A DNA stretch of 64,000 nt from an uncultured Gemmatimonadales bacterium (GTDB lineage Bacteria; Gemmatimonadota; Gemmatimonadetes; Gemmatimonadales; Gemmatimonadaceae), in assembly GCA_963851265.1 (NCBI GenBank), contig CAWKNZ010000002.1, forward strand, positions 256,001-320,000, read 5' to 3'. This document shows positions 1,621-63,714 of the stretch, piece after piece. Positions within the stretch are counted from its first letter, which is position 1; each line of letters starts with the position of its first letter. The notes beneath the pieces are model-generated. The model did not search any database and was not told where the DNA came from. It worked only from the letters and a program-made list of their open reading frames with translations. A program made the translations under genes and the position numbers.

Positions 1621-1788
1621 GCGCCTAACCGCCAGCGCCGTACGCGTCGCCGCCGCACGCGTCGCCCGCCGCCGAGCTCGTCTCGTGAGGCGCACGCCGG
1701 CAAACCAGTCCGCCGGGGCCCGACGGTTGCACGCGCGTGACGCGCCCGCCGCGCACCACCGTCGGTCTCGCATCCCATCCCGTTCGCC

Positions 1789-2244
1789 ATGCAAGCGCTG
1801 CTCCTCGTGTTCACCGTGGTTGCGGGCGTGCTCAACACGCTCCAGTCCGGGAGTAACTCCACCCTCAACAAGCGCCTCGACCACCCGCTCGCGAGCGCCA
1901 CCGTCGTCTATCTCGGCGGACTCGTGCTGCTCCTCCTCGGCTGGCTCGGCGCGCAGCTCGTCGGTAAAGGCGGATTTCCGGCGGCGGACCGCGTCGCGCA
2001 GGTGCCGTGGTGGGGGTGGATCGGCGGGACGCTCGGCCTCGCGTTCGTGTTCGGCACGCTGCTGGTCGCGCCGAAGCTCGGGGCCGCGCTGTACACCACG
2101 GTCTCGGTCACCGCGGCGATCGTCACCTCGCTCGCACTCGACCACTTCGGGTGGATGGGCTTCGAGGTGCACCACGCGGGCGCCGGGCGCATCGTGGGGG
2201 CGCTGCTCATCATCGGGGGCCTGGGGCTGATCGCGAAATTCTGA
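1789..2244 (+). CDS. DMT family transporter (YdcZ-like)
   Basis: Hydrophobic 151 aa with Q..N..L, PWWGWIGG.LG, PKLGA and DHFG motifs. Confidence 0.9.
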   Translation: MQALLLVFTVVAGVLNTLQSGSNSTLNKRLDHPLASATVVYLGGLVLLLLGWLGAQLVGKGGFPAADRVAQVPWWGWIGGTLGLAFVFGTLLVAPKLGAALYTTVSVTAAIVTSLALDHFGWMGFEVHHAGAGRIVGALLIIGGLGLIAKF

Positions 2245-2268
2245 GTGCTTCCGCTGGCCGGCTACCCT

Positions 2269-3930
2269 TCACGCCTCCGGAAGTACGTCGAGCCCCGCCG
2301 TGCCCGCACCGCGCGCCGGCCCGCGGTCGCGCGGCGCGTGCCGTTCCGCGGAGGGTGCGGGCGCGTCGCCGCGCTTGTTCCCGGCCGGCCGTGCCGGGCG
2401 CGGGCCATCGGCCGGCAGCGCCGCCGTGTAGCGCGCGATGTACTCCGTCACGCGCACCTTGCGCGCGGTCGCCTCGCTCGACATCGGCCGCACCTTGCCC
2501 AGCACCGGGCGCTCCTGCCAGGCGTGGTCGTAGCGGCCTAACACCCACGTGACGCCGCTCGTCGAGTTCGGGTTGCGCCCGTCGAGCGCCCAGCGGTTGT
2601 TCACGTGCAGCATGAACGCGAGCGCCTCCTCCCCCGAGCGCGTCCACTCGAGGAACTTCTTCCCCCAGAGGATGCGCAGGTAGTTGTGGATGCGCCCGTC
2701 GGCGCGGAGCTGCCCCTGCGTCGCGTTCCACAGCGCGTCGTACGTCGCGCCCGCCTCGAGCTCGTCGCGCGAGAACAGCTCCGCGCGGCGGTCGCCGGCG
2801 TGCGCCTCGAGCGTCGCGCGCGCCCAGTCGGGCAGCGAGCCGTACGTGTCGTGCGCCGGGAGAAACCGCGCGGTGTTGTACGACAGTTCGCGCCACGTCA
2901 CGAACTCGTCGAGGAACGCCTCCCCGTTGGGCGACATCCCCCACCACCCCTCGCGCTTGCCGGTGGGGCGCGGCGCGAGCCGCTCGAGCGACCACCCCTC
3001 GCGCTCGGCGAGGCCGGCGAACACCTCGTGCGCGCTCACGAACCCCCAGTGCAGGTATGGCGAGAGCCCGCTGTTGCTCGGGTCCTCGGCCTCGTTCCGC
3101 CGGGTCGCGTACGTGCCGAGCTTGCGGTCGAGGAAGTCGGCGAGGACGACGGCGCCCTTGACCGAGCCGCCGCTGAACGCCACCGGCGGCACCGAGTGGT
3201 CGATGGGCAGCGCGCCGAGCGCGGCGCGGCCGGCCTCGCCCCGGTCGAGCAGGGCCGGCGACGCGCCCGGCCAGCGCCGGCGCACCGCCTCCACCTGCGC
3301 GAGCGCCCCGCCCGCGAGCGCGGGAAGCCCGCGTGCCATGCCTAACGGCTCGGCGCGTGGGAACGCGCCGAGCCGCGCGGGGAGCTCGCGCTGCAGGTGG
3401 CGGCGGAAGTGCGGGGCCGCCGTCCAGGCCTTCTCGCCCGATCGCAGCGGCAGCAGTCCGTTCCCGTCGACCGCCTCGAGCCGCACGCCGCGCGCGGCGA
3501 GCTTCTCGCCCGCGGCGGCGAGCATGCGCGGCAGGAAAAACTCGGGGAACTCGTCGGTCACGACGAGGCACGCGCGCTCGGCAAGTGTCTCGAGCAGCCC
3601 GCGCCCGGCGCCGGGCGCGGGCTCCACGTAGGGCAGGTGCGCCACGCGCGCCGCGGCGTACGCGGCCGCGTCGTCGGCCATGCCGTCGAGCGCGAAGCGG
3701 TGCAGCCGGTCGCTCGCAAACGGGTAGCCCGCGCGCAACGCCTCGAGCACGACGAGCGGACGCTGCCACGCGTGCGCCCGGTCCAACGCGTACTCGAGCG
3801 CGAAGTTGTGCCGCGTGCGGCGCGCCATCACGCACCAGTACAGCACGTAGTCGCGCGTGGGCTCGGCGGGCACGTCGTTGCGCGCGCTCAGACGCTCGGC
3901 GGGGACGGTGGACGCGGTGGCGGCAGGCAT
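2269..3930 (-). CDS. phr: deoxyribodipyrimidine photolyase, class II CPD-like
   Basis: YVLYW, HNFALEYA, SGLSPYLHWG, RELSYN, LWNATQ, IHNYLRILWGKK, NNRWALDGRNPNS, ERPVLGKVR. Confidence 0.9.
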   Translation of the reverse strand: MPAATASTVPAERLSARNDVPAEPTRDYVLYWCVMARRTRHNFALEYALDRAHAWQRPLVVLEALRAGYPFASDRLHRFALDGMADDAAAYAAARVAHLPYVEPAPGAGRGLLETLAERACLVVTDEFPEFFLPRMLAAAGEKLAARGVRLEAVDGNGLLPLRSGEKAWTAAPHFRRHLQRELPARLGAFPRAEPLGMARGLPALAGGALAQVEAVRRRWPGASPALLDRGEAGRAALGALPIDHSVPPVAFSGGSVKGAVVLADFLDRKLGTYATRRNEAEDPSNSGLSPYLHWGFVSAHEVFAGLAEREGWSLERLAPRPTGKREGWWGMSPNGEAFLDEFVTWRELSYNTARFLPAHDTYGSLPDWARATLEAHAGDRRAELFSRDELEAGATYDALWNATQGQLRADGRIHNYLRILWGKKFLEWTRSGEEALAFMLHVNNRWALDGRNPNSTSGVTWVLGRYDHAWQERPVLGKVRPMSSEATARKVRVTEYIARYTAALPADGPRPARPAGNKRGDAPAPSAERHAPRDRGPARGAGTAGLDVLPEA

Positions 3931-4131
3931 TCGGGCGGAACGGTGGGCCAGGATCGTCCCGTCAAACGGTCGTCCGCTCTGCGGGGTTCCGCTCGGGGCG
4001 CGTTCCCGACGCCGCCGCGATATCCCGCGGGCGCAATCAAGTGCTCGCCCACGCCGGCCGACACTGCATCTCCGGGCTCGCCGCCGCCGGCGTTCGCGGA
4101 GCCCTTCCTTTTCTCCACCCACACGACGCAC

Positions 4132-7254: not shown

Positions 7255-7905
7255 ATGACCCGAATCCTTGCCCGTTCGCTCGGCGCGCTCGCGCTCGTGC
7301 CTACCCTTGCCGCCGCGCGCCCGACCCGCCCCACCGGTGCTCCGCCGAGTGCGCCCCTGCGTGCCGCCGCACTCGACACCGCGGTGTTCGCGGGTGGATG
7401 CTTCTGGGGCGTCGAGGGCGTGTTCGAGCACGTGCGCGGGGTGCGTTCCGCGACGGCCGGCTACGCCGGCGGGACGGTCCCGTCGCCGTCGTACGATCAG
7501 GTGAGTACGGGTTCCACGGGGCACGCCGAGTCGGTGCGCGTCGTCTACGACCCGTCGCGCGTGTCGTACGACCAGTTGCTGCAGGTGTTCTTCACCGTCG
7601 CGCACGACCCGACCGAGCTCAATCGGCAGGGGCCGGACGTCGGGACGCAGTACCGCTCGGCCGTGTTCTACCGCACGCCGGCGCAAAAGGCCGCGGTCGA
7701 GGCGTACGTCGCGCGCCTGCGCGCGTCGCACGCGTTCGCGCAGCCCATCGTGACCCAGATCGCGCCGCTCGCGCGCTTCAACGAGGCCGAGGCGTACCAC
7801 CAGCGGTACATGGCGCAGCACCCCGACGCGCCGTACATCATGTACAACGACGCGCCGAAGGTGGCGGAGCTCAAGAAGCGGTTCGCCCCACTGTACCAGG
7901 GTTAG
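7255..7905 (+). CDS. msrA: peptide-methionine (S)-S-oxide reductase with signal peptide
   Basis: FAGGCFWGVE, TGHAESV, QGPDVGTQYRS, AEAYHQ. Confidence 0.95.
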   Translation: MTRILARSLGALALVPTLAAARPTRPTGAPPSAPLRAAALDTAVFAGGCFWGVEGVFEHVRGVRSATAGYAGGTVPSPSYDQVSTGSTGHAESVRVVYDPSRVSYDQLLQVFFTVAHDPTELNRQGPDVGTQYRSAVFYRTPAQKAAVEAYVARLRASHAFAQPIVTQIAPLARFNEAEAYHQRYMAQHPDAPYIMYNDAPKVAELKKRFAPLYQG

Positions 7906-7938
7906 GCCGGGCGCGCGCGGGTCGGCCGGGGGGTCGGG

Positions 7939-11142: not shown

Positions 11143-12651
11143 CTACAACGCAGGCGCGCCGGCGACGCGCTGCACGAGCGCGTACAGGAAGTCGAGCCCC
11201 TCGTAGAAGCTCTTGACGCGCAACTTCTCGTCGCGGCCGTGCGCGTTGCTCTCGCCGGGCGCGCTGAAGAGCCCGCTCACCCCGTACGTCGGCACGCCCA
11301 CGGCGCGCAGGAAGCGCCCGTCGGTGGCGCCGGTGCTCATGGTCGGGATGACGGGGATGTCGCCCCACGTGCGGTGCGTCAGGTCGGTGACGGCCGCCAT
11401 GAGCCCGGGGTCGATCGCGCTCGGCGGCGCGCCGAACTTGTCGGTGGGCGGGATGGTGTAGGTCACGCGCACCCCCGTGTCGGCGACCATCCGCGCGAGC
11501 CCGGCGCGCACCTCTTCGGCGTTGGACGTGGGCACGATGCGACAGTTCACGTTGGCCGTGGCCGACTGCGGCAGCGCGTTGTACGCGTGCCCCCCTCCGA
11601 GCCGCGTGGCGACGCACGTGGTGCGGAGCACCGAGTGGTAGCGCGGGTCGCGCGAGAGGGTGGCCGCGGCGGCCGCGACCGCCGCCGAGTCGGCGCCGTC
11701 GGCGACCAGCGCGCGCATGGCGGCGGCCATGTCGGGGCGCGGCTCGACCGCCGCGGTGCTGGCGAAGTAGGCGCGCGTCACCGGGTTGAGGGCGACCGGG
11801 AAGTCGCTCCGGGCGAGATGGCCTAACGCGTCGGCGAGCTCGTAGATGGCGTTGTCGGGGCGCGGCACGCTCGAGTGGCCGCCGGGGTTGGTGGCGGTGA
11901 GGGTGTAATTCACCGGGACCTTCTCCGCCGCCTGTACGGCGTGCATCAGCGGCCGCGCGCCCGCGACCCCGCCCGCCTCGGTGAGCGTCCCGCCGCCGCC
12001 CTCGTTGAGGGCGTAGGCGGCGTCGAGCAGGTCGCGGTGCGTGCGCGTGAGCCACTCGACGCCGTTCGCGTCGCCCCCTTCCTCGTCGGCCGTGAGCGCG
12101 AGGATCAGGTCGCGCGACGGCGTCCACCCCTCGCGCTTGTAGCGCAGCAGGTTGGCCGTGAAGATCGCGGCCATCGCCTTGTCGTCCGCCGTGCCGCGAC
12201 CGAGGAAGTAGCCGCCCTCCTCGTGCAGCGTGAACGGGTCGCGCGGCCAGTCGGCGCGGTTCGCGGCGACGACGTCGAGGTGCGCGAGGAGCAGGATCGG
12301 TTTCGCGGCGGCGCCCCCCGCGGGCGGCCGGCCGCGGTAGCGGACGATGAGGTTGGCCTTGGTCGGCTTCCCCGGCGGGGTGAGGATCTGGACGTCGGCG
12401 GCGGGAAAACCGGCGGCGCGGAAGCGGGCGGCCATCGCGTCCACGGCGCGCGTGACCGACCCGACGGAATCGACCGTGTTGATCTCGACCAGTTCGCGGT
12501 AGATCGCGCGGGCGGCCTGCTGGTCGGGCGTACGCTGCGCGGCGGCGGTCCGGGCGGTCAGGGCCGTGGCGGCGGCGAGCGAGGCCGCGACAGCCGAGCG
12601 CGCGGCACGGCGGGCGGGGCGGGATGCGGAGTCGTGCGGTGGGCGGCGCAT
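11143..12651 (-). CDS. M20/M25/M40 family metallopeptidase, secreted
   Basis: AHLDVV, GRGTADDK, ADEEGG, GGHSS, GATDG, AHGRDE. Confidence 0.92.
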   Translation of the reverse strand: MRRPPHDSASRPARRAARSAVAASLAAATALTARTAAAQRTPDQQAARAIYRELVEINTVDSVGSVTRAVDAMAARFRAAGFPAADVQILTPPGKPTKANLIVRYRGRPPAGGAAAKPILLLAHLDVVAANRADWPRDPFTLHEEGGYFLGRGTADDKAMAAIFTANLLRYKREGWTPSRDLILALTADEEGGDANGVEWLTRTHRDLLDAAYALNEGGGGTLTEAGGVAGARPLMHAVQAAEKVPVNYTLTATNPGGHSSVPRPDNAIYELADALGHLARSDFPVALNPVTRAYFASTAAVEPRPDMAAAMRALVADGADSAAVAAAAATLSRDPRYHSVLRTTCVATRLGGGHAYNALPQSATANVNCRIVPTSNAEEVRAGLARMVADTGVRVTYTIPPTDKFGAPPSAIDPGLMAAVTDLTHRTWGDIPVIPTMSTGATDGRFLRAVGVPTYGVSGLFSAPGESNAHGRDEKLRVKSFYEGLDFLYALVQRVAGAPAL

Positions 12652-17976: not shown

Positions 17977-17983
17977 GCCGCGC

Positions 17984-18553
17984 CTAACGCCGCGCCGCGC
18001 GGCGGGCCGGTCCGGGGCGCGCCGGCGCCCGGCGCTCGTCGGCCGCGAGGCGCTTCACGAACAGGAACTTCTTCCCGATCGACAGCTCCGAGCGCGAGAT
18101 CGCCGCGTAGCGCGCGATCTTCTCCGGGTAGCGCGCGAGGCTCGACTGGCGGAAACCCGCGGCCGTGAACAGGGTGTCGGCGAGCGAGACGGCGAACAGC
18201 TCGGGGTAGCCGCGCTGCCGCGCGAGCGCCTCGGCGGCCGCGATCAGGCGCCGCCCGAGTCCGCGCCCCTGCGCCTCGGGCGCGACGGCGAGCGAGACGA
18301 GTTCGGCGAGCGACGGCGCGTACTCGTCGATCGCGACGCAGCCTAACAGCGGGGCGTCGTGGCCCGCCGGGGCGCCGTCCGCGCCGCGAGGGGCGTCGCC
18401 TCGCGCCACGCGGTAGCCCTCGATGCGCGCCGCGACGAAGGCCGGCGTGCGCGGCAGCGTGAGCCCGTCGGGCGCGTAGCGGTTGTTGAGCGCGGCGATC
18501 GCTTCGGCGTCCTCCGGGCGCGCGGGGACGATGGCCGGGGCGGCGTCCGTCAC
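17984..18553 (-). CDS. GNAT N-acetyltransferase (short ArgA-like)
   Basis: LPRT, AELVSLAV..EAQGRGLGRRL, FxxxGF, PEKI. Confidence 0.85.
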   Translation of the reverse strand: MTDAAPAIVPARPEDAEAIAALNNRYAPDGLTLPRTPAFVAARIEGYRVARGDAPRGADGAPAGHDAPLLGCVAIDEYAPSLAELVSLAVAPEAQGRGLGRRLIAAAEALARQRGYPELFAVSLADTLFTAAGFRQSSLARYPEKIARYAAISRSELSIGKKFLFVKRLAADERRAPARPGPARRAARR

Positions 18554-23799: not shown

Positions 23800-23868
23800 C
23801 CGGGCCAATCTACGGACGCGACGTCCCGACCGCCCGCCGCGTCCGCGGCGTGGCCGTACGTTAGGCGC

Positions 23869-26816: not shown

Positions 26817-26833
26817 CCGCGGCGCCCGCCCGC

Positions 26834-35387: not shown

Positions 35388-35394
35388 GCGCCGC

Positions 35395-40330: not shown

Positions 40331-41278
40331 ATGTCTTCGGTTTATGGCGATCTCGACCTGCCGCGCTTCGCGCGCGCGTACGGCGTCGACTTCAGCGGCG
40401 CGCGGCTGGCGGGGCGGACGACGTGGGTGGCGCGCCTCGATCTCGCGGGCGACGGCGGGCCGCCGCGCCTCGCCGCGCTCGACCGGCTCGACCGCCTGGC
40501 GGGGACGGCGGAGCGGGGGCCCGCGCTGGCGCACCTCGTCACCATGGTGCGCGGCTCCGCCGACGCGCTCTGGGCGTTCGACTGCCCGTTCGGGCTGCCG
40601 GTCGAGCTGCTGCCGGCACGCGCGGGGTGGGCGGCGCAGCGCCGCCTGGTGCGCGAGTGGGGGGACGACGCCTACGGGCTCGGGCTGGAGTGCGTGCGCC
40701 GGGCGCGGGCGTTAGGCGGTCCGCTGCACGTCCGGCGGCTCACGGACGGGGACGCGCGCGCGCCGTTCGACCCCTACCACTACCGCATCATCTACCAGAC
40801 GTTCTACGGCGTGCGGGACGTCGCGGGGCCGCTCGCGGCCGACGCGGGCACGGCGGTGCTGCCGTTCCAGTACCGGAAGCTCGCCCGCGGCAGGCTCGGG
40901 CGTGGCAAGCTCGGCCGCGACCGGCGGCCGCGGCGCGAGGGTGTGGGCGATCGCGCCAGCGGGCCGGCCGCGCGGCGCGTCGTGGTCGAGACGTGCCCGG
41001 GGTCGACGTTGCGGCGGTGGGGGCTGCCGTTCCAGCGGTACAAGCAGCCGGAGGGCGGGGCGCTGACGGCGGTACGGCGCCGCACGCGGCGGGCGATCGT
41101 CGACGGCGTGTGTGCGCGGGTGGTCGTGGGGCCGGCGTTCGTCCGGCGGATGATGCGGGACCCGGGCGGGGACGCGCTGGACGCGGTGGTCGCGGCGGCC
41201 GGCGGGCTCGAAGGGGTGTTAGGCGCGGACCACGCGGCGGGAGGGCGCTACCGGCGGGAGGGGCGCCTGTTCTTCTGA
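40331..41278 (+). CDS. DUF429-like predicted nuclease (RNase H-like fold)
   Basis: YGVDFSGA, FDCPFGLP, ETCPG, DALDAVVAA, EGRLF. Confidence 0.75.
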   Translation: MSSVYGDLDLPRFARAYGVDFSGARLAGRTTWVARLDLAGDGGPPRLAALDRLDRLAGTAERGPALAHLVTMVRGSADALWAFDCPFGLPVELLPARAGWAAQRRLVREWGDDAYGLGLECVRRARALGGPLHVRRLTDGDARAPFDPYHYRIIYQTFYGVRDVAGPLAADAGTAVLPFQYRKLARGRLGRGKLGRDRRPRREGVGDRASGPAARRVVVETCPGSTLRRWGLPFQRYKQPEGGALTAVRRRTRRAIVDGVCARVVVGPAFVRRMMRDPGGDALDAVVAAAGGLEGVLGADHAAGGRYRREGRLFF

Positions 41279-42728: not shown

Positions 42729-44408
<1,680 letters not shown>

Positions 44409-44473: not shown

Positions 44474-46122
<1,649 letters not shown>

Positions 46123-46663: not shown

Positions 46664-47524
46664 CTACCCCGCCGTCGCCGTGCTCGTCGTGCGGCGGGGT
46701 TTCGCGGCCGGCTTCGGTGCCGGCGCCGGCCGCTCGGGAGGCTTCTGCTCCGCCGCCTTCTCCGCGCCCGGCGGCAGCGACACCGCGCGGATCACGCGCG
46801 CGCTGTCGATCGCGTCGAGCTTGGGAAATTGCGCGGCGAGGTACGCGTTCCCCTCGGCCGCGATGCGGTCCTGGTCGGGCCCGCGCCCGGCCGGAGCGCC
46901 CTCGCCGTAGCCGCCGTACAGCGAGTCGACGGTCTCCATCCCGAGCACCACGCGGCCTAACGGCGCGAAGCCGAGCTTGTCGAGCCGCTGGTTGTTGGCG
47001 AGGTTGACGAACAGCTGCGTCGTGCGCGTGTTGGGCCCCGCGGTGGCGAAGCTGACGAAGCCGCGCAGGTTGGTGCGTCGCACGGGGTCGTCGCGGATCG
47101 TGCGCGTCTCCCACACCTTGTTCACGCGCGGGTCGCCCGGCGCGCCCCACTGCGCCGCGAAGCGCGGCAGCACGCGGAAGAAGCGCGCGCCGTCGTAGAA
47201 CCCGTTGGTCACGAGGTAGAACAGCCGGTCGGACCCGCGCGGCGCCCACCCGCGCGTCACGCGCACGACGAACGGCCCCCGCGTGGTCGAGAAGCGCACG
47301 TCGAAGGTGTCGGGCGCCGCGCGGTGCTCGACGGCGGTGTCGGGGTCGAGCAGCAGGTTGCGGCGCGCGCCGCCCGGCGTGGGGGCCTCCTCGGCGCGCG
47401 GCCCGCGCGAGCACGCCGCGACGAACGCGGTGCAGGCGGCGGCCGCGAGCGCGCCGAGGACGAACGTAGGCCCGCGGCGAGCGCGGGCGGACGGCAGGTG
47501 CAGGAGCGACATCGGGACGAACAT
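46664..47524 (-). CDS. cyclophilin-type peptidyl-prolyl cis-trans isomerase (lipoprotein)
   Basis: FYDGARFFRV, AQWG, FATAGPNTRTTQLFVN, LD..GFAPLGRV. Confidence 0.92.
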   Translation of the reverse strand: MFVPMSLLHLPSARARRGPTFVLGALAAAACTAFVAACSRGPRAEEAPTPGGARRNLLLDPDTAVEHRAAPDTFDVRFSTTRGPFVVRVTRGWAPRGSDRLFYLVTNGFYDGARFFRVLPRFAAQWGAPGDPRVNKVWETRTIRDDPVRRTNLRGFVSFATAGPNTRTTQLFVNLANNQRLDKLGFAPLGRVVLGMETVDSLYGGYGEGAPAGRGPDQDRIAAEGNAYLAAQFPKLDAIDSARVIRAVSLPPGAEKAAEQKPPERPAPAPKPAAKPRRTTSTATAG

Positions 47525-50169: not shown

Positions 50170-52071
50170 ATGACAGCCCCCGCCATTCCCGCCGCCGCGA
50201 CGGGCGCGCCCGCGCGCGGCCCCGCCTCGACGGACCCGAAGAAGAAGCCTGTCGACACGAAAGCCGCCTGGCGCGAGGCCCGCGCCCTCATGTGGCAGCA
50301 CCGCCGCGAACTCGGCGTCGGCGCCGCGCTGATGGTGGTGAGCCGCCTGGCCGGCTTCGTCCTCCCCCTCTCGTCGAAGTACCTCATCGACGACGTGATC
50401 ACCAAGGGGCGCCACAACCTGCTCTGGCCGATCGCGCTCGGCGCCACCCTCGCGACCGTGGTCCAGGCGGTCACCGGGTTCGCGCTCTCGCAGGTGATCT
50501 CGGTGGCCGCGCAGCGCGCCATCAGCGACATGCGCCGCCGCGTGCTCAACCACATCACGCGCCTGCCGGTGCGCTACTTCGACGAGCACCAGACGGGCGT
50601 GCTCATCTCGCGCGTGATGAACGACGCGGAAGGCATCCGCAACCTGGTCGGCACCGGGCTCGTGCAACTCGTCGGGGGCGTGTTCACCGCCGTGCTGGCG
50701 CTCGGCGTGCTCGTCTGGCTCAACTGGCTCATGACGCTCATCATCGTCGTCATCCTCGCGCTGTTCGCGTGGGGGATGGCGACCGCCTTCGGCCGGCTGC
50801 GCCCGATCTTCCGCGAGCGCGGGAAGATCACCGCCGAGGTCACGGGGCGGTTGAACGAGACGCTCGGCGGCATCCGCGTCGTGAAGGCGTACGGCACCGA
50901 GCGGCGCGAGCAGGCCGTGTTCGGCAAGGGCGTCAACCGGCTGTTCCGCAACATCGCCAGCAGCATCACCGGCGTGAGCGCGACCACCAGCGCGGGTACC
51001 GTGGTGGTGGGGCTCGTGGGGCTGCTCATCCTCGCCGTGGGCGGCCCGGCGGTGATCGCCGGGCGGATGACGTTGGGCGACCTGCTCTCGTACGTCTTCT
51101 TCGTGGGCCTGCTCGCCGTGCCCGTGATCTCGGTCGCCTCCATCGGCACGCAGATCTCCGAGGCGATCGCGGGGCTCGACCGCATCCGCGAAATCCTCGG
51201 CACGCCCACCGAGAACGAGGAGGACGCGCGTCGCGCGGCGCTCCCCGCGCTCCGCGGCGAGGTGCGCTTCGAGGACGTCTGGTTCGCCTACCGCGAGAAC
51301 GTGCCCGTGCTCAAAGGCGTCACCTTCGACGCGCCCGAGGGGAGCACGACCGCGCTCGTCGGCTCGAGCGGGAGCGGCAAGAGCACGCTCGTCTCGCTCG
51401 TCATGGCCTTCAACCGCCCCACGCGGGGGCGCATCCTCGTCGACGGCCGCGACCTCGACGGGGTGAAGCTCGCCGACTACCGGTCGAAGTTAGGCGTCGT
51501 GCTGCAGGACAACTTCCTCTTCGACGGCACGGTCGCCGAGAACATCAGCTTCTCGCGCCCGTCCGCCACGCGCGCCGAGGTCGAGGAGGTGGCGCGCCTG
51601 GCCAACTGCGACGACTTCGTGCGCGGCTTCCCCGAGGGGTACGATACCGTCGTCGGCGAGCGCGGGGTCAAGCTGTCGGGCGGGCAGCGGCAGCGCATCG
51701 CCATCGCGCGCGCGCTGCTCGCCGACCCGCGCGTGCTCATCCTCGACGAGGCCACCTCGTCGCTCGACTCCGAGAGCGAGGCGCTCATCCAGGAGGCGCT
51801 CGCGCGACTCCGCGGCGGGCGCACGACGTTCGTCATCGCCCACCGCCTCTCCACCATCCGCTCGGCCGACCAGATCCTCGTGCTCGAGCACGGGGCCGTG
51901 GTCGAGCGCGGCACGCACGCCGAACTCATGGCGTTGGGCGGGCGCTACCGTGCGCTCCACGACCGGCAGTACGCGTGGGAGGAGAACCGCTTCACGAACC
52001 CCGGCGAAGATTTCACGACGCCGGCCGCGGCGGCGTCGCCCACGGTCGCGCGCCCCGTGGCGGCGCGGTAG
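50170..52071 (+). CDS. ABC transporter fused permease/ATP-binding protein (MsbA/MdlB-like)
   Basis: TM domain; GSSGSGKST, LSGGQRQR, ILDEATS, IAHRLST. Confidence 0.95.
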   Translation: MTAPAIPAAATGAPARGPASTDPKKKPVDTKAAWREARALMWQHRRELGVGAALMVVSRLAGFVLPLSSKYLIDDVITKGRHNLLWPIALGATLATVVQAVTGFALSQVISVAAQRAISDMRRRVLNHITRLPVRYFDEHQTGVLISRVMNDAEGIRNLVGTGLVQLVGGVFTAVLALGVLVWLNWLMTLIIVVILALFAWGMATAFGRLRPIFRERGKITAEVTGRLNETLGGIRVVKAYGTERREQAVFGKGVNRLFRNIASSITGVSATTSAGTVVVGLVGLLILAVGGPAVIAGRMTLGDLLSYVFFVGLLAVPVISVASIGTQISEAIAGLDRIREILGTPTENEEDARRAALPALRGEVRFEDVWFAYRENVPVLKGVTFDAPEGSTTALVGSSGSGKSTLVSLVMAFNRPTRGRILVDGRDLDGVKLADYRSKLGVVLQDNFLFDGTVAENISFSRPSATRAEVEEVARLANCDDFVRGFPEGYDTVVGERGVKLSGGQRQRIAIARALLADPRVLILDEATSSLDSESEALIQEALARLRGGRTTFVIAHRLSTIRSADQILVLEHGAVVERGTHAELMALGGRYRALHDRQYAWEENRFTNPGEDFTTPAAAASPTVARPVAAR

Positions 52072-53331: not shown

Positions 53332-53904
53332 ATGCCGCTGCCGTTAGGCGGGCGCGTCGTCCTGCGCGCGCCGGCGCCCGACGACGCCCCCGCCTTTCTC
53401 GCGCTCGTCCAGGCGAGCGTGGCGCTGCACCACCCGTGGGTCGTCGCGCCCGACACGCCGTCCGCGTTCCGCGCCTACCTCGAGCGCGCGGCGCGCGAGC
53501 ACGACCCCTTGCCGGGGCACGTCTGCCGCCTCGTGTGCCGCGCCGACGGCGGCGCGCTCGTCGGCGCGGCCAACCTCAACAACGTCGTCTGGGGCGGGTT
53601 CCGCTGCGCGTCGCTCGGCTACTACGCGTTCGAGCCCTGGGCCGGCCGCGGCTACATGCGCGCGGGCGTGACGCAGCTTCTCACCGACGCATTCCGGCGC
53701 GTCGGGCTGCACCGGGTCGAGGCGGCCGTGCAGCCGGGCAACGCGCGCTCCCGCGCGCTGCTCCGCGCGCTCGGATTCCGCCACGAGGGCGATTCGCCGC
53801 GCTACCTGCTGCTGGCCGGCCGGTGGCGCGACCACGAGCGCTGGGCGATCACCGCCGAGGAGTGGCGCCCGCGGCGCACGTTCCGGCGCCCCCCGGCCGA
53901 GTAG
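53332..53904 (+). CDS. GNAT acetyltransferase (RimJ-like)
   Basis: LGYY, GRGYM, LHRVEA.VQPGN..S, GFRHEG, WRDHERWA. Confidence 0.9.
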   Translation: MPLPLGGRVVLRAPAPDDAPAFLALVQASVALHHPWVVAPDTPSAFRAYLERAAREHDPLPGHVCRLVCRADGGALVGAANLNNVVWGGFRCASLGYYAFEPWAGRGYMRAGVTQLLTDAFRRVGLHRVEAAVQPGNARSRALLRALGFRHEGDSPRYLLLAGRWRDHERWAITAEEWRPRRTFRRPPAE

Positions 53905-54465: not shown

Positions 54466-54482
54466 TCCGTCCGGGCGACGTC

Positions 54483-55184
54483 GTGGACGACACCAGCCGC
54501 CTGGACCCTGCCCTCCGCGAGGCGCGGCGCCTGCTCCTCCTCTCCAACTCGCGCGACGCCGAGGGGCGCTACCTCGTGCACGCCCGCGACGCGCTCGCCG
54601 CGCACCTGGAGGGCGCGCGCGAGGTCGCCTTCGTCCCCTACGCCGGGGTCACGGTCGACTGGGACGCGTACGCGGCGCGGGCGGCCGACGCCCTCGCGCC
54701 GTTAGGCGTCGCGGTCCGGGGCGTGCACGCCGACGCGGACCCCGGGGCGGTGCTGTCCGGCTGCGGCGCGGTCGCGGTCGGCGGCGGCAACACGTTCCAC
54801 CTGCTCGCCCACCTGCAGCGCCGCGGACTGCTCGCGGTGCTCCGCGCGCGCGCGGCGGCCGGGGTCCCGTACGTGGGGTGGAGCGCGGGCTCGGTGGTCG
54901 CCTGCCCGACGATCCGCACGACCAACGACATGCCGATCGTCGAGCCGCCGGGAGGGCTGGAGGCGTTAGGACTGTTCGGCGCGCAGATCAACGCGCACTT
55001 CACCGACGAGCACCCGGCCGGCTTCCAGGGCGAGACCCGCCGCCAGCGCCTCGACGAGTTCGTCGTCGCGAACCCGGGCGTGACGGTGATCGGACTGCCG
55101 GAAGGGAGCTGGCTCGAGGTGGAGGGAAGAGACGTACGCGTCGGCGGCCCGCACGAGGTGGTGAGATTCGGGGGGAGCGCGTGA
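54483..55184 (+). CDS. pepE: dipeptidase E (S51)
   Basis: LLLLSNS, FVPYAGV, VGGGNTF, GWSAG, TIRTTNDMPI, GETR..RL.EF. Confidence 0.93.
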   Translation: MDDTSRLDPALREARRLLLLSNSRDAEGRYLVHARDALAAHLEGAREVAFVPYAGVTVDWDAYAARAADALAPLGVAVRGVHADADPGAVLSGCGAVAVGGGNTFHLLAHLQRRGLLAVLRARAAAGVPYVGWSAGSVVACPTIRTTNDMPIVEPPGGLEALGLFGAQINAHFTDEHPAGFQGETRRQRLDEFVVANPGVTVIGLPEGSWLEVEGRDVRVGGPHEVVRFGGSA

Positions 55185-55620: not shown

Positions 55621-55638
55621 CGCCGGGGCCGATCGGCG

Positions 55639-56034: not shown

Positions 56035-56068
56035 CCCGAAAGGTAGGCAGCCCGCCCACCGGCCTCCG

Positions 56069-56350: not shown

Positions 56351-57356
56351 GTCCGGTGCCCCGCAGCCGGATCGTCCCCTCGCACACGACCACCGAGTTC
56401 CCGCCCACGCGCACCGCCGTTACCCGCCCGCCGTCGTCCTTGTCGACGCGCACCTCGAGCCGGCTCGGCCGCCCCATCTCGACGCCCTGCGCGACGCACC
56501 ACGCCAGCGTCCCGCCCCCCGGCGCCCGCGACGCGAGGTAGCCGCCTAACGCCGCGCACGCCGAGCCCGTCGCCGGGTCCTCGGGCACCGCGAGGTCCGG
56601 GACGAACACCCGCGCGTGCACCGCCTGCGACCCGCCCGCGAACCCGTCCGCACCCTCGGGCGCGTCGAGCGCGAACACCAGCACGCCCTCGCTCTCGAAC
56701 TCGCGCGCCCCGTCGTGCGGGTCGCGCCCCGAGTTCGCCACCGGGAACGCCGCCTTCCACGCCTCCGCCCGCACGTGCGCGCGCGCGACCGCGGCCCGGT
56801 CCTTCACCGGCACGATCGTGAAGGGCAGCCCGCACGACCCGATGCTGGGCGCGTACGCGCCGCCGAGCAGCTCGTCTTCCCCGATGCCCAACGCCGCGGC
56901 GAGCAGCGCGGGTGCCGGGGCCGGGTGCTCCTCGGGCAGCCGGGCGACGCTGAGCTCGGCGAACGCCGGCTCGAGCCCGCCCAGCTCCGCCGACCCGCCC
57001 TCGCCGAGGTCCACGCGCACGCGCACGTCGCCCACCCCCTCCTCCAACACCACCGTCGTCTCGCGCGCGACGGTGCGCAGCGCGCCCACGGCGAACAGCA
57101 CGTGCGCCGTGCCGACGGTCGGATGCCCCGCGAACGGGATCTCCGCCGCCGGCGTGAAGATCCGCACGCGCGCCGCACCCCCGCGCTCCGGCGGCAGCAC
57201 GAACGTCGTCTCCGAGTAGTTGAACTCGCGCGTCACCGCGAGCATCTCCTCGTCCGTCATGCCCCCGGCGTCGAGCACCACCGCGAGCGGGTTGCCGCCG
57301 AACTGGCGGTCGGTGAACACGTCCGCGGTGACGTAGCGGAACGCGCGCGCGGCCAT
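56340..57356 (-). CDS. PhzF family epimerase/isomerase
   Basis: DVFT...GGNPLAV, NYSETTF, EIPFAGHPT, EDPATGSA, QGVEMGRPS. Confidence 0.95.
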   Translation of the reverse strand: MAARAFRYVTADVFTDRQFGGNPLAVVLDAGGMTDEEMLAVTREFNYSETTFVLPPERGGAARVRIFTPAAEIPFAGHPTVGTAHVLFAVGALRTVARETTVVLEEGVGDVRVRVDLGEGGSAELGGLEPAFAELSVARLPEEHPAPAPALLAAALGIGEDELLGGAYAPSIGSCGLPFTIVPVKDRAAVARAHVRAEAWKAAFPVANSGRDPHDGAREFESEGVLVFALDAPEGADGFAGGSQAVHARVFVPDLAVPEDPATGSACAALGGYLASRAPGGGTLAWCVAQGVEMGRPSRLEVRVDKDDGGRVTAVRVGGNSVVVCEGTIRLRGTGRGG

Positions 57357-59191
57357 CAGATCGCCCCCTCCTGCGCCGGCGGCTCCGCCGGGTCCGCGCC
57401 GAACTCCGGGTGCAGGAACGCGTACCGGTAGTCCGTCGGCGGCGCGAACGTCTCCTTGATCGTCCGCGGGCTGGTCCACCGCAGCAGGTTGAGCTTCGAC
57501 CCCGCCTTGTCGTTGGTCCCCGACCCGCGCGCCCCGCCGAACGGCTGCTGCCCCACCACCGCGCCCGTCGGCTTGTCGTTCACGTAGAAGTTGCCCGCCG
57601 CGTTCCGCAGCGCGACCGCGGCCTGCCTCACCGCCTTCCGGTCGCGCGCGAACACCGCCCCCGTCAGCGCGTACGGCGACGTGCGGTCGACCGTGCGCAG
57701 CACGTCCTCCCACCCCTGCGGCGCGGCGTCGTCCCACGCGTACGCCGTCACCACCGGCCCGAAGATCTCCTCGCACATCAGCCGGTACCCGGGCTCCGGC
57801 GCCTCGACCAGCGTCGGCTCCACGAACCACCCCGTCGTGCGGTCGGCCCCGCCACCCTGCACGATCCGCGCGTTCGCCCGCGCGTCGTCCAGGTACCCCG
57901 AGATCTTCGTGAACGAGCGCTCGTCGATCACCGCGCCCATGAAGTTCCCGAAGTCGCGCACGTCGCCCACCCGGATGTCGCGCATCATCGCGACCACGCG
58001 CTCGCGCACGTCGGCCCACATCGACCGCGGCACGTACACCCGGCTCGCCGCCGAGCACTTCTGCCCCTGGTACTCGAACGCCCCGCGCACGATCCCCACC
58101 GCGAGCACCTGCGGGTCGGCCGAGGGGTGCGCGAGGATGAAGTCCTTCCCCCCGGTCTCGCCCACGATCCTCGGGTACGAGCGGTAGCGCCCCATGTTGC
58201 GCCCGATCGTCTCCCACATGCTGTTGAACACGCCCGTGCTGCCCGTGAAGTGCACGCCCCCGAGGTCGGGGTGCGCGAGCAGCGGGTCGCTCACGAGCTT
58301 GGGATCGCCCGGCACGAAGTTGATCACGCCCGGCGGCAGTCCGGCCTCCTCCAGCAGTCGCATCAGGTGCCACGCCGAGAGCATCGCGCCGGCGGCGGGC
58401 TTCCACACCACCGTGTTCCCCATCAGCGCCGCGCTCGTCGGCAGGTTGCCCGCGATCGCCGTGAAGTTGAACGGCGTCACCGCGTACACGAACCCCTCCA
58501 GCGGGCGGTAGTCGAGCTGGTTCCACATCGTGCGGTCGCTCGCCGGCTGCTCCGCGTACAGCTCCTGCGCGAACTGCACGTTGAACCGCAGGAAGTCGAT
58601 CAGCTCGCACGCCGAGTCGATCTCCGCCTGGTGCGCGGTCTTCGCCTGGCCTAACATCGTCGCCGCGTTCAGCGTCTGCCGCCACGTCGTCGCCAGCAGC
58701 TCGGCGGCGCGCAGGAACACCGCCGCGCGGTCCTCCCACGCCCAGTTGGCCCACTCGCGGTGCGCGTCCCGCGCCGCGTCGACCGCGCGCGCCACGTCCT
58801 CCACGCCGGCCCGGTGCCACTCGCCTAACACCTCGCGGTGCGCGCACGGGTTGGCCACCCGCGCCACGTCGCCCGTGTAGACCCGCTCGCCGCCGATCAC
58901 GAGCGGGATCTCCGCGCGCTCGGCGGCCATCTCGGCCAGCCGCGCACGGAGTTCCGCCCGCTCCGGCGAGCCCGGCGCGTAGCCGCGCACCGGTTCGTTC
59001 ACCGCCGGCGGCACGCGGCGCGTCCCGGCGAACCCGACCGCGCCGCCCATCTCCGGCAGCGGCTGCTCGGCGCTCGCCGCCGTGCCGCCGCGCACCGGCG
59101 CCTCGCCACCGGAGCCGTGAGGGACGTGCTGGGCCGGCGCACGCGGGGCGGACGTGGCCTCGGCGGGCGCGGACGGAACGGAGGTGGCCAT
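57356..59191 (-). CDS. pruA: L-glutamate gamma-semialdehyde (P5C) dehydrogenase
   Basis: AEIDSACE, PFNFTAI, FTGST, GETGGKDF, EYQGQKCSA, EEIFGP, SGTNDKAG. Confidence 0.95.
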   Translation of the reverse strand: MATSVPSAPAEATSAPRAPAQHVPHGSGGEAPVRGGTAASAEQPLPEMGGAVGFAGTRRVPPAVNEPVRGYAPGSPERAELRARLAEMAAERAEIPLVIGGERVYTGDVARVANPCAHREVLGEWHRAGVEDVARAVDAARDAHREWANWAWEDRAAVFLRAAELLATTWRQTLNAATMLGQAKTAHQAEIDSACELIDFLRFNVQFAQELYAEQPASDRTMWNQLDYRPLEGFVYAVTPFNFTAIAGNLPTSAALMGNTVVWKPAAGAMLSAWHLMRLLEEAGLPPGVINFVPGDPKLVSDPLLAHPDLGGVHFTGSTGVFNSMWETIGRNMGRYRSYPRIVGETGGKDFILAHPSADPQVLAVGIVRGAFEYQGQKCSAASRVYVPRSMWADVRERVVAMMRDIRVGDVRDFGNFMGAVIDERSFTKISGYLDDARANARIVQGGGADRTTGWFVEPTLVEAPEPGYRLMCEEIFGPVVTAYAWDDAAPQGWEDVLRTVDRTSPYALTGAVFARDRKAVRQAAVALRNAAGNFYVNDKPTGAVVGQQPFGGARGSGTNDKAGSKLNLLRWTSPRTIKETFAPPTDYRYAFLHPEFGADPAEPPAQEGAI

Positions 59192-59320
59192 GGCTCGGGT
59201 GACGCGGGTCGGGGCGATTCGGTGACGACGTGTGACGAACGCGCGCCGCTCGGCGCGCCCCGCCGTGCGCGAAATCTACTGGCGCTCGCCGCCCGCCTCC
59301 GCCGCGGGTAACTTCCCCCC

Positions 59321-61069: not shown

Positions 61070-61122
61070 CCGCGTCACACGGGCGCCCGCCCGGAGCGCG
61101 CCCCACTCCACCCCGCCCGCCC

Positions 61123-61824
61123 GTGATCCGCCGCACCCTCGCCGCCCTCGGCCTAACGACCGCAGCGGCCGCCGCTTCCGCCCGCGCCCAGTCCGCCGCG
61201 CCGCGCGCCTTCGTCACCCGCCGCGGCGCCGACACGCTCGTCGTCGAGCAGGTCGAGCGCGCCGCCGACGGCACCGTCCTCTCGCGCCTGGACTTCCGCG
61301 GCGGCGGCGGGCCCCCCGCCGGCCTGCGCGCGTCGGCCGCCTACACCCCGGGGCCCGACGCGCGCGTGCGGCGCGCCACCATCGAGGTCACGCCGCCCGG
61401 CGCCGGCGCGCCCGCGCAGCGCGTCACCATGACGTTCGGTGCCGCGCCCGGCGACAGCGTCGAGGTACAGGTCGGCAGCGCGCCGGCGCAGCGCGTGGCG
61501 GCCGCCGCGGGCGCGCTACCCTTCGGCGACCTCTCCGTCGCGTCCTGGGAGCTCATCGTCCGGCGCGCCCGCGCGCTCGGCGGCGGCACGCTGCGCTCCA
61601 CGTTCGTCCCCGTCTTCATCGGCCCCGGCCGCCCCGCGATCACCGCGTCGGTCGCGCCACTCGGCGCCGACTCCGTCGTGCTCGCGATGAACGGCGTCGA
61701 GCTCCGCGCGCGTCTCGCCGCCGGCGACGAGATCCTCGGCATGCGCGTTCCGTCGCAGGGCGTCGTCGTCGAAGCAGTCCCGCGCGGCGCCGCGGCCCTC
61801 GGGACCGCCGCGCCGCGCGACTAA
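61123..61824 (+). CDS. secreted hypothetical protein
   Basis: Signal peptide; G.DTL.VE motif; beta-rich. Confidence 0.75.
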   Translation: MIRRTLAALGLTTAAAAASARAQSAAPRAFVTRRGADTLVVEQVERAADGTVLSRLDFRGGGGPPAGLRASAAYTPGPDARVRRATIEVTPPGAGAPAQRVTMTFGAAPGDSVEVQVGSAPAQRVAAAAGALPFGDLSVASWELIVRRARALGGGTLRSTFVPVFIGPGRPAITASVAPLGADSVVLAMNGVELRARLAAGDEILGMRVPSQGVVVEAVPRGAAALGTAAPRD

Positions 61825-61989
61825 AAATCGCCGCAACCGGCGTGTGTAAGGCACCCCGGTGTTGACGCGCGCTGACGCTGCACGCCTATTGCATGTGCGC
61901 CTCACACACGTACGTTAGGGCGCGACCGTCACCAATTGCGACGGAGCCCGCGGGACGCTCCGCGCGCCCATCCCCACACAGGAGACGCG

Positions 61990-62568
61990 ATGGCCACAGC
62001 CAAGAAGCCCGCCGGCGCCGCAAAGACGCGGTCCACCTCGACCAAAACCAGCGCCGGCGCCAAGACCAGCGCCGGGGCCAAGAAAGCCCCGGCCAAGTCC
62101 GGAAGCGCCGCGCCGAACAAGGCGGCCGCCACGGCCAAGGCGCCCGCGAGCAAATCTGCCGCAAAGACCGCGGCCAAGACGGCGAGCAAGACCGCCGCGA
62201 AGACGGCCGCCAAGACGGCGAGCAAGACCGCGGCGAAGTCCGCCGCCAAGACGGCGAGCAAGTCGGCCGGCACCGCGGCGGCCAAGAAGGCGCCCTCCAA
62301 GGCCGCCGCCGGCAAGCGCGGGCCCAACCCCGCGTTCATGAAGCCCCTCCAGCCCGACGCCCAGCTGGCCGAGGTGGTCGGCAAGGACCCGATGCCGCGC
62401 ACGCAGGTCGTCGCCCGCGTGTGGGACTACATCAAGAAGAACGGCCTGCAGGAGAGCCGGAACATCAAGGCCGACGACAAGCTCCGCCCCATCTTCGGCA
62501 AGGAGCAGATCACCATGTTCGAGATGATGAAGCTCGTCAACGCGCACCTTTCCGACGCGTCGGCGTAA
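61990..62568 (+). CDS. SWIB/MDM2 domain protein with histone-H1-like AKT-rich N-terminus
   Basis: FMKPLQP...LAEVVG..PMPRTQVV..VWDYIKKNGLQ...IKADDKL..IFG; GGAG RBS. Confidence 0.93.
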   Translation: MATAKKPAGAAKTRSTSTKTSAGAKTSAGAKKAPAKSGSAAPNKAAATAKAPASKSAAKTAAKTASKTAAKTAAKTASKTAAKSAAKTASKSAGTAAAKKAPSKAAAGKRGPNPAFMKPLQPDAQLAEVVGKDPMPRTQVVARVWDYIKKNGLQESRNIKADDKLRPIFGKEQITMFEMMKLVNAHLSDASA

Positions 62569-62737
62569 TACACGCCGCGCGCGAACTCGTGTTCGGGCGC
62601 GCCCCCGGACGGCCGCAGACTTGGCGGCCGGCCGGGGGCGCGCCAGCTTTCGGGGTCGCGCCACCGCGCGCGACTCCGCGCGCCCGTGACCGCTCGCCGG
62701 TCCGCGCCGCCCCGCGCTTTCTTCCTGCTCCGACGTC

Positions 62738-63613
62738 GTGCCCCCATCGTCCGCCAAGTCCGCCAGCTCGCGCAACGCCGTCGCGGACCTCCGCGCCGGA
62801 CGCCGCACCTCCACGCGCGCCCGGAGCGGCGGACGCTCCGCGGCCCGCCGCGGCGGTGCCGGCGTGTGGGAGACCGCCCGCGCCTTCCTCGGCACGATCG
62901 TCCTCTTCCTCGTCATCCGCACCTTCCTCGTCGAGGCGTTCCGGATCCCGTCGGGAAGCATGATTCCCACGCTGCTCGTCGGCGACTGGCTGTTCGTCAA
63001 CAAGCTCGTCTACGGCCCGCACCTGCCATTCACGAGTGTCACGCTTCCGGGCTACGCCGACCCCAAGCGCGGCGACGTGGTCGTGTTCGAGTCGCCGTAC
63101 CAGGGCGACGAGGCCGCGCGCGGCGCCGACCCCACGCCCACCCTGGTCAAGCGCCTCGTCGGTCTCCCGGGCGACACGCTGTACATGCGCGACGGGCTGC
63201 TCTACGTCGACGGCGTCGCGCAGCGCCAGGGCTACGCCGCGAGCGGCAACTTCAAGGGCTTCGCCGACGAGACCAACGACCTGTTCGGGTGGCAGCGCCA
63301 GTACGCGCTCTCGGCCTCACGTTTCGGCGCCGCGCCAGCCACCCCCACGCACGACAACTGGGGGCCCCTCGTCATCCCGCCGCGCCACTACATGATGCTC
63401 GGCGACAACCGCTACTGCTCCAAGGACTCGCGCTACTGGGGTCTCGTGCCGCGCGCCAACCTGCGCGGCCGCCCGATCTTCGTCTACTACTCCTACCGCC
63501 CGGCGCCCGACGACGACGCCGGTCCCAACACGTGCGACCCGGACCGCAGCGAGAAACCCGCACCGTTCGTCACCGACGTGCGCTGGGGCCGCATCGGGCA
63601 CGTGATTCGGTAA
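62738..63613 (+). CDS. lepB: signal peptidase I
   Basis: IPSGSMIPTL..GD, RGDVVVF, VKRLVGLPGD, GDNR..S.DSRYWG. Confidence 0.96.
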   Translation: MPPSSAKSASSRNAVADLRAGRRTSTRARSGGRSAARRGGAGVWETARAFLGTIVLFLVIRTFLVEAFRIPSGSMIPTLLVGDWLFVNKLVYGPHLPFTSVTLPGYADPKRGDVVVFESPYQGDEAARGADPTPTLVKRLVGLPGDTLYMRDGLLYVDGVAQRQGYAASGNFKGFADETNDLFGWQRQYALSASRFGAAPATPTHDNWGPLVIPPRHYMMLGDNRYCSKDSRYWGLVPRANLRGRPIFVYYSYRPAPDDDAGPNTCDPDRSEKPAPFVTDVRWGRIGHVIR

Positions 63614-63714
63614 GCCCGCGGCCGGCCGCCCGGGGCGCGGCGGCCGGACGCTCGTTAGGCGCGGTCGACGCGTCCACCCGCCGGCCCGCGCGCCGGCCTC
63701 GGTCGGGGCCGGCC

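Follow-up and report, generated by a model that had tools for sequence, protein, structure and literature searches.

A recurrent DNA word in some Gemmatimonadaceae as a possible uptake signal, with the letters of an integron core site

Why does one short word, GTTAGGC or its reverse complement GCCTAAC, recur throughout ordinary genes of a G+C-rich bacterium? The question is raised by a stretch of 64,000 bp (the window, G000:C2:256001-320000) in the genome of an uncultured soil member of the Gemmatimonadales (G000; GCA_963851265.1, 4.60 Mb in 12 contigs, 73% G+C). An earlier, sequence-only reading had noted at least 31 copies of the heptamer by eye, and every one of them lies where it had been placed; the window holds exactly 31 (13 on the + strand, 18 on the - strand), compared to 2.35 ± 1.59 expected by chance in 100 dinucleotide-preserving shuffles, the largest of which gives 8 copies and none of which reaches 31. 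We find that the word is an octamer, YGTTAGGC, imposed at the level of DNA, maintained in place among congeners, and patchily distributed in the family Gemmatimonadaceae. By analogy with the DNA uptake sequences (DUS) and uptake signal sequences (USS) of other bacteria, it may be a signal for uptake or self-recognition spread by molecular drive, a tentative reading to which we assign a probability of about 0.42.

An octamer written into DNA in every frame

The G000 genome carries 1,762 copies of the heptamer, 885 forward and 877 reverse, which account for 29% of all its TTA/TAA trinucleotides. The heptamer is only part of the real unit, the octamer YGTTAGGC, a point absent from the sequence-only reading: genome-wide, 79% of copies have C and 14% have T at -1 (in the window, C 21, T 6, G 3, and A 1), and the base at +1 is seldom T. 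Under a third-order Markov model, CGTTAGGC has 1,396 copies versus 58 expected; other octamer counts are 243 for TGTTAGGC, 54 for AGTTAGGC, and 69 for GGTTAGGC. Split into seven classes (four coding frames, two stop frames, and non-coding DNA), the copies have C at -1 in 72 to 94% of cases in every class. Because the codon position of this base changes from frame to frame, the constraint acts on DNA and not on protein.

The excess survives when coding content is held fixed. We used a crude but conservative set of 2,658 stop-to-stop open reading frames (ORFs) with third-position G+C of >0.85, covering 3.53 Mb, and shuffled codons (n = 20) so that all protein sequences and the codon pool of the whole genome were preserved. 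The ORF set contains 1,098 copies (764 as xxG-TTA-GGC, 205 as xxG-CCT-AAC, 71 as xGC-CTA-AC, and 58 as GTT-AGG-C), compared to 65.7 ± 7.2 after shuffling (largest, 81); the rare codons of the word itself raise this null, which makes the real excess larger still. The 43 called ORFs of the window likewise hold 21 copies versus 1.1 ± 1.2. TTA is not evenly spread over other contexts, since 764 of the 1,104 in-frame TTA codons are G-TTA-GGC. Neither of the two outcomes that the sequence-only reading had named as refuting it is therefore observed. Among sites where the protein permits the word, it occupies 595 of 3,609 [Ala/Pro/Ser/Thr]-Leu-Gly sites (16.5%), where codon usage predicts 12.7 copies, and, from the other strand, 171 of 716 Pro-Asn-[VADEG] sites (24%), where 13.5 are predicted. 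The same holds for Val-Arg (53 of 3,014; 1.4 expected) and [SRGC]-Leu-Thr sites (57 of 1,557; 5.2 expected). Dipeptide and tripeptide frequencies are hardly distorted (1.13 times expectation for Pro-Asn and 1.23 for Ala-Leu-Gly), indicating that the word is accommodated mostly synonymously.

The word also supplies stop codons: 126 of 349 TAA (36%) and 58 of 632 TAG (9%) stops of the ORF set. It shapes the last codon as well, with GCC before 128 of the 349 TAA stops and alanine as the final residue in 48% of TAA-stop ORFs versus 23% of TGA-stop ORFs. In these genomes, most TTA codons and a third of TAA stops trace to the word, which can mislead codon-usage and gene-finding models. Stop usage itself (TGA 1,674, TAG 632, TAA 349) is unusual for 73% G+C.

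The proposal that the word is imposed at the DNA level, the core of the sequence-only reading, stands on these observations: enrichment in all four stop-free frames, both stop-containing frames, and non-coding DNA, a -1 base that does not depend on frame, survival of the codon-aware shuffle, and the lack of polarity described below. Spacing is near-exponential (coefficient of variation, 1.07), and close pairs are rarer than chance (1.5% versus 3.8% at <100 bp). The word is asymmetric, without the palindromic form of HIP1.

Copies are maintained in place and still gained and lost

Positional conservation was measured on window positions 40001 to 60000, aligned to four congeners at 81 to 85% identity. 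Of the window copies that fall in aligned stretches, 29 of 37 are intact in the congeners (6/10, 9/9, 6/8, and 8/10), compared to a baseline of 30 to 40% of all heptamers in the same alignments, and where a copy differs, the alternative is mostly a synonymous leucine codon. At the same time, 27 copies are found only in congeners and not in G000, against the 29 shared ones. Maintenance and turnover thus go together, with copies still being gained or lost. Where congeners carry the word, G000 has TTG, CTG, CTC, CCC, GGA, and other states, the commonest alternate in the comparison being the TTG-containing CGTTGGGC. With so many different alternates, no single mutational step makes the word, and a single hypermutable precursor is rejected on this ground and because copies in stop codons must derive from other stop codons.

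The word is patchy within the family, with one dialect

The survey covered 121 Gemmatimonadaceae genomes, three of them unpublished (G011, G049, and G050) and none of these three word-rich. All four congeners of G000 are rich (977 to 3,304 copies). Measured against a reversed control, CGTTWGGC is enriched at least 2.5-fold in 29 of the 121 genomes and at least 5-fold in 16, and in samples of G012, G063, G064, and G121, whose G+C content is 62 to 67%, the octamer of G000 ranks first among over-represented words. The distribution is patchy. The closest other genus by identity of RF3 (G047, 85%; G111, 86%) has 50 and 23 copies, below the control, and the next genus (G055, 82%) has 4,491. Two GTDB genera are split, with 4,022 copies in G064 versus 125 in G122 and 933 in G101 versus 242 in G031. 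Such close relatives with and without the word are natural on/off contrasts, which make the origin and the readers of such words testable by comparative genomics and uptake assays.

One genome carries a dialect. In G008, (T)CGTTTGGC occurs 925 times versus 110 for its control, in all six frames and beside CGTTAGGC; among the 121 genomes this dialect is confined to G008, and the next highest enrichment is about 2- to 2.5-fold. A search for an alternative word in word-poor G009 and G005 found none. Nor does G122 have such a word, its top words being 7-bp tandem repeats.

These repeats of G122, the word-poor congener of G064, are intergenic tandem heptamers, (CTGCTTT)n and (AGGGTTC)n (L105, L110, L111, and L113), and CTGCTTTCT occurs 66 times in 227 kb of this genome versus 1.2 expected. 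In G031, the congener of word-rich G101, there is a weak excess of (T)CGTCAGGC (L121-L130; the 9-mer 28 times versus 4.0 expected in 200 kb) beside 11 copies of CGTTAGGC; the word may be decaying or shifting in this genome.

An uptake or self-recognition signal as a tentative reading

What kind of agent could write such a word? The data call for a reader of the DNA word as such, one that is indifferent to strand and transcription and whose presence is evolutionarily labile. The sequence-only reading had offered a HIP1-like element, an uptake sequence, a modification target, and a nucleoid-protein site; our tests favor uptake or self-recognition and weaken a simple methylation or repair drive, without settling the choice. 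In the pathway that we propose, a sequence-specific protein would read YGTTAGGC on double- or single-stranded DNA, whatever the strand, frame, or gene, and a component of the type IV pilus/ComEC route would bind word-bearing fragments in preference to others. Such fragments would recombine into the chromosome more often, so that new copies would spread by molecular drive and would settle where the protein tolerates them, mostly at [Ala/Pro/Ser/Thr]-Leu-Gly as xCG-TTA-GGC, at antisense Pro-Asn, in stops, and in spacers. In this pathway we infer the uptake bias itself, its receptor, and a spread by drive rather than by selection.

The minor pilin ComP reads DUS in Neisseriaceae; USS occur in Pasteurellaceae. 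To our knowledge, self-recognition by sequence during DNA uptake is firmly established for these two proteobacterial families only, and HIP1 of cyanobacteria, reinterpreted of late as an uptake "watermark" (PMC13756078), is a recent candidate and a parallel. Of the known systems, DUS and USS come closest to the present word in anatomy. Like DUS and USS, the present word is short and non-palindromic, has hundreds to thousands of copies at about one per 1 to 3 kb, equally on both strands, and is written into genes in the least costly frames, against codon usage. It is common to related species, with an occasional one-letter dialect and mildly enriched one-mismatch variants, in genomes that encode a type IV pilus secretin and ComEC. 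In contrast to DUS and USS, it belongs to another phylum, is unrelated in sequence, specifies just 8 bases at a lower fold-enrichment, and coincides with the integron core, and its presence varies even within a genus, where DUS and USS are family-wide. If the reading is right, this would be a third or fourth independent case of uptake self-recognition, in an abundant, little-cultured soil phylum.

Another abundant repeat known to modulate transformation through a dedicated reader is the NTS/SRM type, read by Ssn single-strand nucleases; that study looked for the gene whose occurrence follows that of the repeat (PMC11893778). NTS are hairpins of about 30 bp, intergenic and clustered around genes (PMC11893778), unlike a bare 8-mer that lies mostly in genes, and Ssn/NTS was rejected as a model because its targets are these 30-bp hairpins.

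The machinery for uptake is present. G000 encodes ComEC (C2:1510102-1510974), a full-length PilQ-like secretin just under the curated cut-off (C5:33448-34818), and seven prepilin-type open frames; ComEC is found in 112 of the 121 genomes and a PilQ-like secretin in 120, all just under the curated cut-off. By eye, in per-genome tables, ComEC, the PilQ-like secretin, and the Uma2 nuclease family occur in word-rich and word-poor genomes alike, and all three were rejected as determinants; Uma2 (94 of 121 genomes, 0 to 14 matches per genome) is unrelated to the word. A Uma2-family gene, with a putative restriction endonuclease fold, lies in the window at 53983-54465. The idea that clusters of copies flank a reader gene was rejected too, since the clusters found are cassette arrays.

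Several points weigh against an uptake signal. The uptake machinery, a necessary but not a discriminating feature, does not track the word, as word-poor genomes have both ComEC and the secretin. Two minor pilins of G000, searched with their globular parts as candidate ComP-like receptors, do not track it either: the first is found in word-poor G047 and G111 and not in word-rich G001, and the second is found in G001 only. Unlike Neisseria DUS, the word forms no inverted pairs at gene ends, and its close pairs are scarce. Gain and loss within single GTDB genera needs a very labile determinant. A uniform drive does not predict a word-free stretch of 45 kb, and a plain uptake model does not predict a word that equals the integron core site. 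Finally, a literature search for Gemmatimonad* together with "uptake sequence," or for Gemmatimonas together with "natural competence," returned no paper. The earlier remark that the word has no description in this lineage agrees with full-text searches, in which the heptamer turned up only in an integron paper and in a primer, neither relevant.

A possible resident chromosomal site and the word-free zone around parAB

The word could instead be a site for a protein of the resident chromosome (nucleoid, repair, segregation, or replication linked), kept by weak selection on many copies and unrelated to uptake. Maintenance in place of 29 of 37 copies is what such a site would show, and the scarcity of close pairs is as expected for sites that need spacing. 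A further hint comes from outside the window: G000:C1:182876-227962 (45 kb) contains no copy versus 13.8 expected from genome-wide occupancy of its 66 [APST]LG sites (P of ~1e-6). This zone holds gidA, parA, parB, mnmE, PGM, and other housekeeping genes, together with a palindrome resembling canonical parS, TGTGGCACGTGCCACA, twice in perfect form and once as a near copy; the same contig also carries dnaA, at 12 kb. Depletion is seen in the orthologous 20 kb of G001 as well (3 copies versus 12 expected).

A general exclusion by ParB/parS was rejected as unsupported, because five other word-rich lineages (L162, L164, L166, L170, and L207) carry 7 to 15 copies in 13 to 21 kb around parB, in some cases within 1 to 2 kb of a parS-like site. 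The zone is therefore lineage-specific. Leucine codons within it are 86% CTC, and it may be a replaced segment. Beyond this, an essential function would hardly be expected to be absent from the closest genus or from one of two congeneric species, and known nucleoid-protein sites do not resemble an exact, contiguous 8-mer that recurs every 2.6 kb in coding DNA against strong codon bias. We consider a resident site unlikely.

Coincidence with the integron core site

A second rival rests on the letters of the word. The attC/attI core consensus is GTTRRRY, and GCCTAAC is the R'' box of one studied attC (PMC12901181). GTTAGGC fits GTTRRRY/RYYYAAC letter for letter, an identity absent from the sequence-only reading; by arithmetic, a random heptamer fits this consensus on either strand with a probability of about 0.002, and we therefore do not treat the match as chance. 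In the cassette array of word-poor G021 (C43), attC sites of 90 to 131 bp start with GCCTAACG and end with TGTTAGGC, so that even the Y at -1 matches. An integron-type or Xer-type tyrosine recombinase, or a host factor exploited by integrons, could then read the word, and the copies would be secondary or docking sites. G000 has about 10 pairs of attC-like geometry (GCCTAAC...GTTAGGC, 40 to 170 bp apart, versus 4 in reverse order), array-like clusters on C10, and integrase pieces on C6, and 70 of the 121 genomes of the family have a match to the integron integrase (TIGR02249) above its curated cut-off.

However, the integrase does not track the word, being found in 15 of 29 word-rich and 46 of 83 word-poor genomes (p = 0.83), and it is rejected as the driver; word-rich G063, G121, G097, G107, and G008 have Xer-level matches only. 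Attachment-site geometry is shown by only about 10 of the 1,762 copies. The others are solitary 8-mers within ordinary genes, in which no L boxes, hairpin partner, or cassette structure was found, and integrase presence does not explain them. Thousands of good integrase sites within essential genes should be harmful, and the dialect of G008, GTTTGGC, breaks the GTTRRRY consensus. The likeness to attC/attI thus lies in identical letters and in local arrays that use GCCTAACG...TGTTAGGC, and the unlikeness in solitary copies without association with intI. We judge a recombinase quite unlikely.

The coincidence may nonetheless bear on the uptake reading. Natural transformation is reported to feed integron recombination in Vibrio (PMC8191803, PMC12614218). 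It is conceivable, if improbable enough to be offered as speculation, that the word is the near-universal attC core put to a second use: an uptake protein or another DNA-capturing protein would have come to recognize the commonest repeated word at hand, and drive would then have spread it. Cells with such a protein would preferentially bring in integron cassettes and the DNA of kin from environmental DNA, and the spread through housekeeping genes would be a by-product of uptake bias acting through homologous recombination. If so, natural transformation would be mechanistically tied to cassette harvesting, which would explain why a family with the integrase in 70 of 121 genomes hosts the word. 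The identity with the integron core in any case raises a testable link between transformation and gene-cassette capture.

Two features of G000 itself deserve mention here. The integrase gene is matched in two pieces about 2 kb apart (C6:3005-6044 and C6:1592-1708), corresponding to model positions 2-265 and 260-313, and an attC-like site adjoins them. At C10:188936-213220 and C2:114808-116424, GCCTAAC/GTTAGGC pairs 90 to 115 bp apart alternate with the spacing of cassette arrays.

Modification, polar signals, and translation as improbable readings

A by-product of modification or repair would arise if a methyltransferase acted with a very-short-patch-like or mismatch-biased repair, or if a hypermutable methylated precursor converted near-words into the word. 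A patchy, labile spread among genera is typical of restriction-modification genes, and the commonest alternate in congeners is the TTG-containing CGTTGGGC. The 24 one-mismatch neighbors of the octamer have observed/expected ratios from 0.40 to 11.06, several of them mildly enriched (TGTTAGGC 11-fold, CGTAAGGC 3.7-fold, and CGTTGGGC 2.3-fold), as predicted by decay from a driven word. Among them, no depletion is large enough to balance the excess of the word as a very-short-patch-type sink, and CGTTGGGC is itself enriched. Copies arise, moreover, by many substitutions (from CTC, CTG, TTG, CCC, GGA, and other stops), and an excess of at least 17-fold over the codon-aware null is far above what known repair biases yield. 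Such a by-product appears distinctly improbable.

HIP1 of cyanobacteria (GCGATCGC) is a natural comparison here: it is now argued to be an uptake "watermark," and its effect on transformation is reported to depend on methylation (PMC13756078), a point in favor of modification. Like the present word, HIP1 is a hyper-abundant octamer in coding sequence, evolutionarily maintained and long without a function; unlike it, HIP1 is palindromic, the target of known methylases, phylum-wide, and reportedly quasi-periodic, compared to an asymmetric, patchy word with near-exponential spacing.

A polar signal, either Chi for RecBCD/AddAB or KOPS for FtsK, would also be an over-represented 8-mer at a similar density (about one per 3 kb), and the word is mildly co-oriented with gene-dense strands, because its orientation tracks that of genes. 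Chi and KOPS are skewed with replication direction, and here the sequence-only reading, which had called the word non-polar, is borne out: sense and antisense copies number 185:44 in genes of the locally dominant strand and 58:19 in those of the minority strand (p = 0.33), a test limited by a GC skew in G000 too weak to fix origin and terminus. No strand bias remains after gene strand is allowed for, genome totals are even, and fetched DNA of three other genomes is balanced (29/21, 36/38, and 28/45), so that Chi/KOPS-type polarity is rejected; enrichment against codon usage is also far above that known for Chi. We regard a polar signal as very improbable.

An effect on translation or mRNA (a favored TTA-GGC codon pair, or a site of RNA binding or cleavage), suggested by the 22 of 31 window copies and 764 of 1,098 ORF copies in the sense Leu-Gly frame and by the presence of tRNA-Leu(UAA) in G000, is hardly credible and is refuted by antisense copies (occupancy at Pro-Asn, 24%, exceeds that at Leu-Gly, 16.5%), by copies in stop codons and intergenic DNA, and by C or T at -1 everywhere. 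The probability left over from the readings named here belongs to something not yet imagined.

The copies in the window and their genes

The 31 window copies are listed in Table 1. Frames were assigned from codon-position G+C, stop-anchored open frames, and codon phase, which reproduces the breakdown of the sequence-only reading: 22 copies as xxG-TTA-GGC (Leu-Gly), 4 in stop codons, 2 antisense, and 3 non-coding. The genes are ordinary housekeeping ones, among them prfC, a cysK-like PALP enzyme, an aldehyde dehydrogenase, msrA, peptidases, and glycosyltransferases.

Table 1. Copies of GTTAGGC/GCCTAAC in the window, with strand, reading, host gene, base at -1, and retention in congeners
Position	Strand	Reading and location	Base at -1	Kept in congeners
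1623..1629	-	Non-coding/unclear; 5' edge/upstream of PCuAC gene (1090-1602); GTT-AGG if coding	G	
2536..2542	-	xxG-TTA-GGC Leu-Gly, ORF 2272-3891 (weak photolyase-like match)	T	
3340..3346	-	Leu-Gly, ORF 2272-3891	C	
7901..7907	+	GT-TAG-GC, TAG stop of msrA (7423-7905)		
11821..11827	-	Leu-Gly, peptidase M20 gene (11146-12615)		
17982..17988	-	TAG stop of GNAT acetyltransferase gene (17984-18556)		
18341..18347	-	Leu-Gly, GNAT gene (17984-18556)	T	
19006..19012	-	Leu-Gly, peptidase M28 gene (18553-20202)		
22483..22489	-	Leu-Gly, peptidase M61 gene (21616-23775)	T	
23308..23314	+	Antisense within M61 gene, read there as xxG-CCT-AAC (Pro-Asn)		
23860..23866	+	Non-coding, just upstream of M61 coding part (high-GC3 end near 23775)		
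24355..24361	-	Leu-Gly, HD-domain gene (24094-25083)		
26811..26817	-	GCC-TAA-C on +, TAA stop of Crp-like regulator gene (26154-26816)		
26837..26843	-	Leu-Gly, final two codons of aldose 1-epimerase gene (26834-27736)		
34216..34222	+	Leu-Gly, cysK-like PALP enzyme gene (33812-34744)		
35393..35399	-	TAG stop of class IV aminotransferase gene (35395-36327)		
35641..35647	-	Leu-Gly, class IV aminotransferase gene (35395-36327)		
40711..40717	+	Leu-Gly, ORF 40376-41278 (no Pfam family)		
41218..41224	+	Leu-Gly, ORF 40376-41278	T	
44219..44225	+	Leu-Gly, prfC (42786-44408)		4/4
44707..44713	+	Leu-Gly, ABC1 kinase gene (44435-46126)		3/4
45475..45481	+	Leu-Gly, ABC1 kinase gene (44435-46126)		3/4
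46955..46961	-	Leu-Gly, cyclophilin gene (46667-47506)		4/4
51489..51495	+	Leu-Gly, ABC transporter gene (50179-52071)	A	2/4 (CTC in others)
53343..53349	+	Leu-Gly, close to start of GNAT gene (53332-53904)		
54701..54707	+	Leu-Gly, peptidase S51 gene (54462-55184)		3/3 aligned
56544..56550	-	Leu-Gly, PhzF-like gene (56343-57332)		4/4
58649..58655	-	Leu-Gly, aldehyde dehydrogenase gene (57359-59188)	T	2/4 (TTG in others)
58823..58829	-	Leu-Gly, aldehyde dehydrogenase gene (57359-59188)		4/4
61151..61157	-	Antisense in + ORF 61102-61821 (no Pfam family), read there as GGC-CTA-AC		
63654..63660	+	Intergenic, 41 bases past stop of signal peptidase gene (62771-63613)		

Of the gene names given earlier, prfC (by its RF3 domains), the cysK-like PALP enzyme, and the aldehyde dehydrogenase are supported by Pfam, and the photolyase is not, having a sub-threshold match only. 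The frame so named (ORF 2272-3891, - strand) has 540 residues and two copies of the word, and it matches the N-terminal domain DNA_photolyase with an E value of 0.034 and 14.6 bits against a cut-off of 26.6, so that "photolyase" is a plausible but unconfirmed name. At 26811-26843, two - strand copies lie 26 bases apart at the convergent ends of the Crp-like regulator and aldose epimerase genes. The prfC protein of the window, used as the query, finds RF3 at an E value of <=1e-100 in just 61 of the 121 family genomes, suggesting that prfC is dispensable in half of the family.

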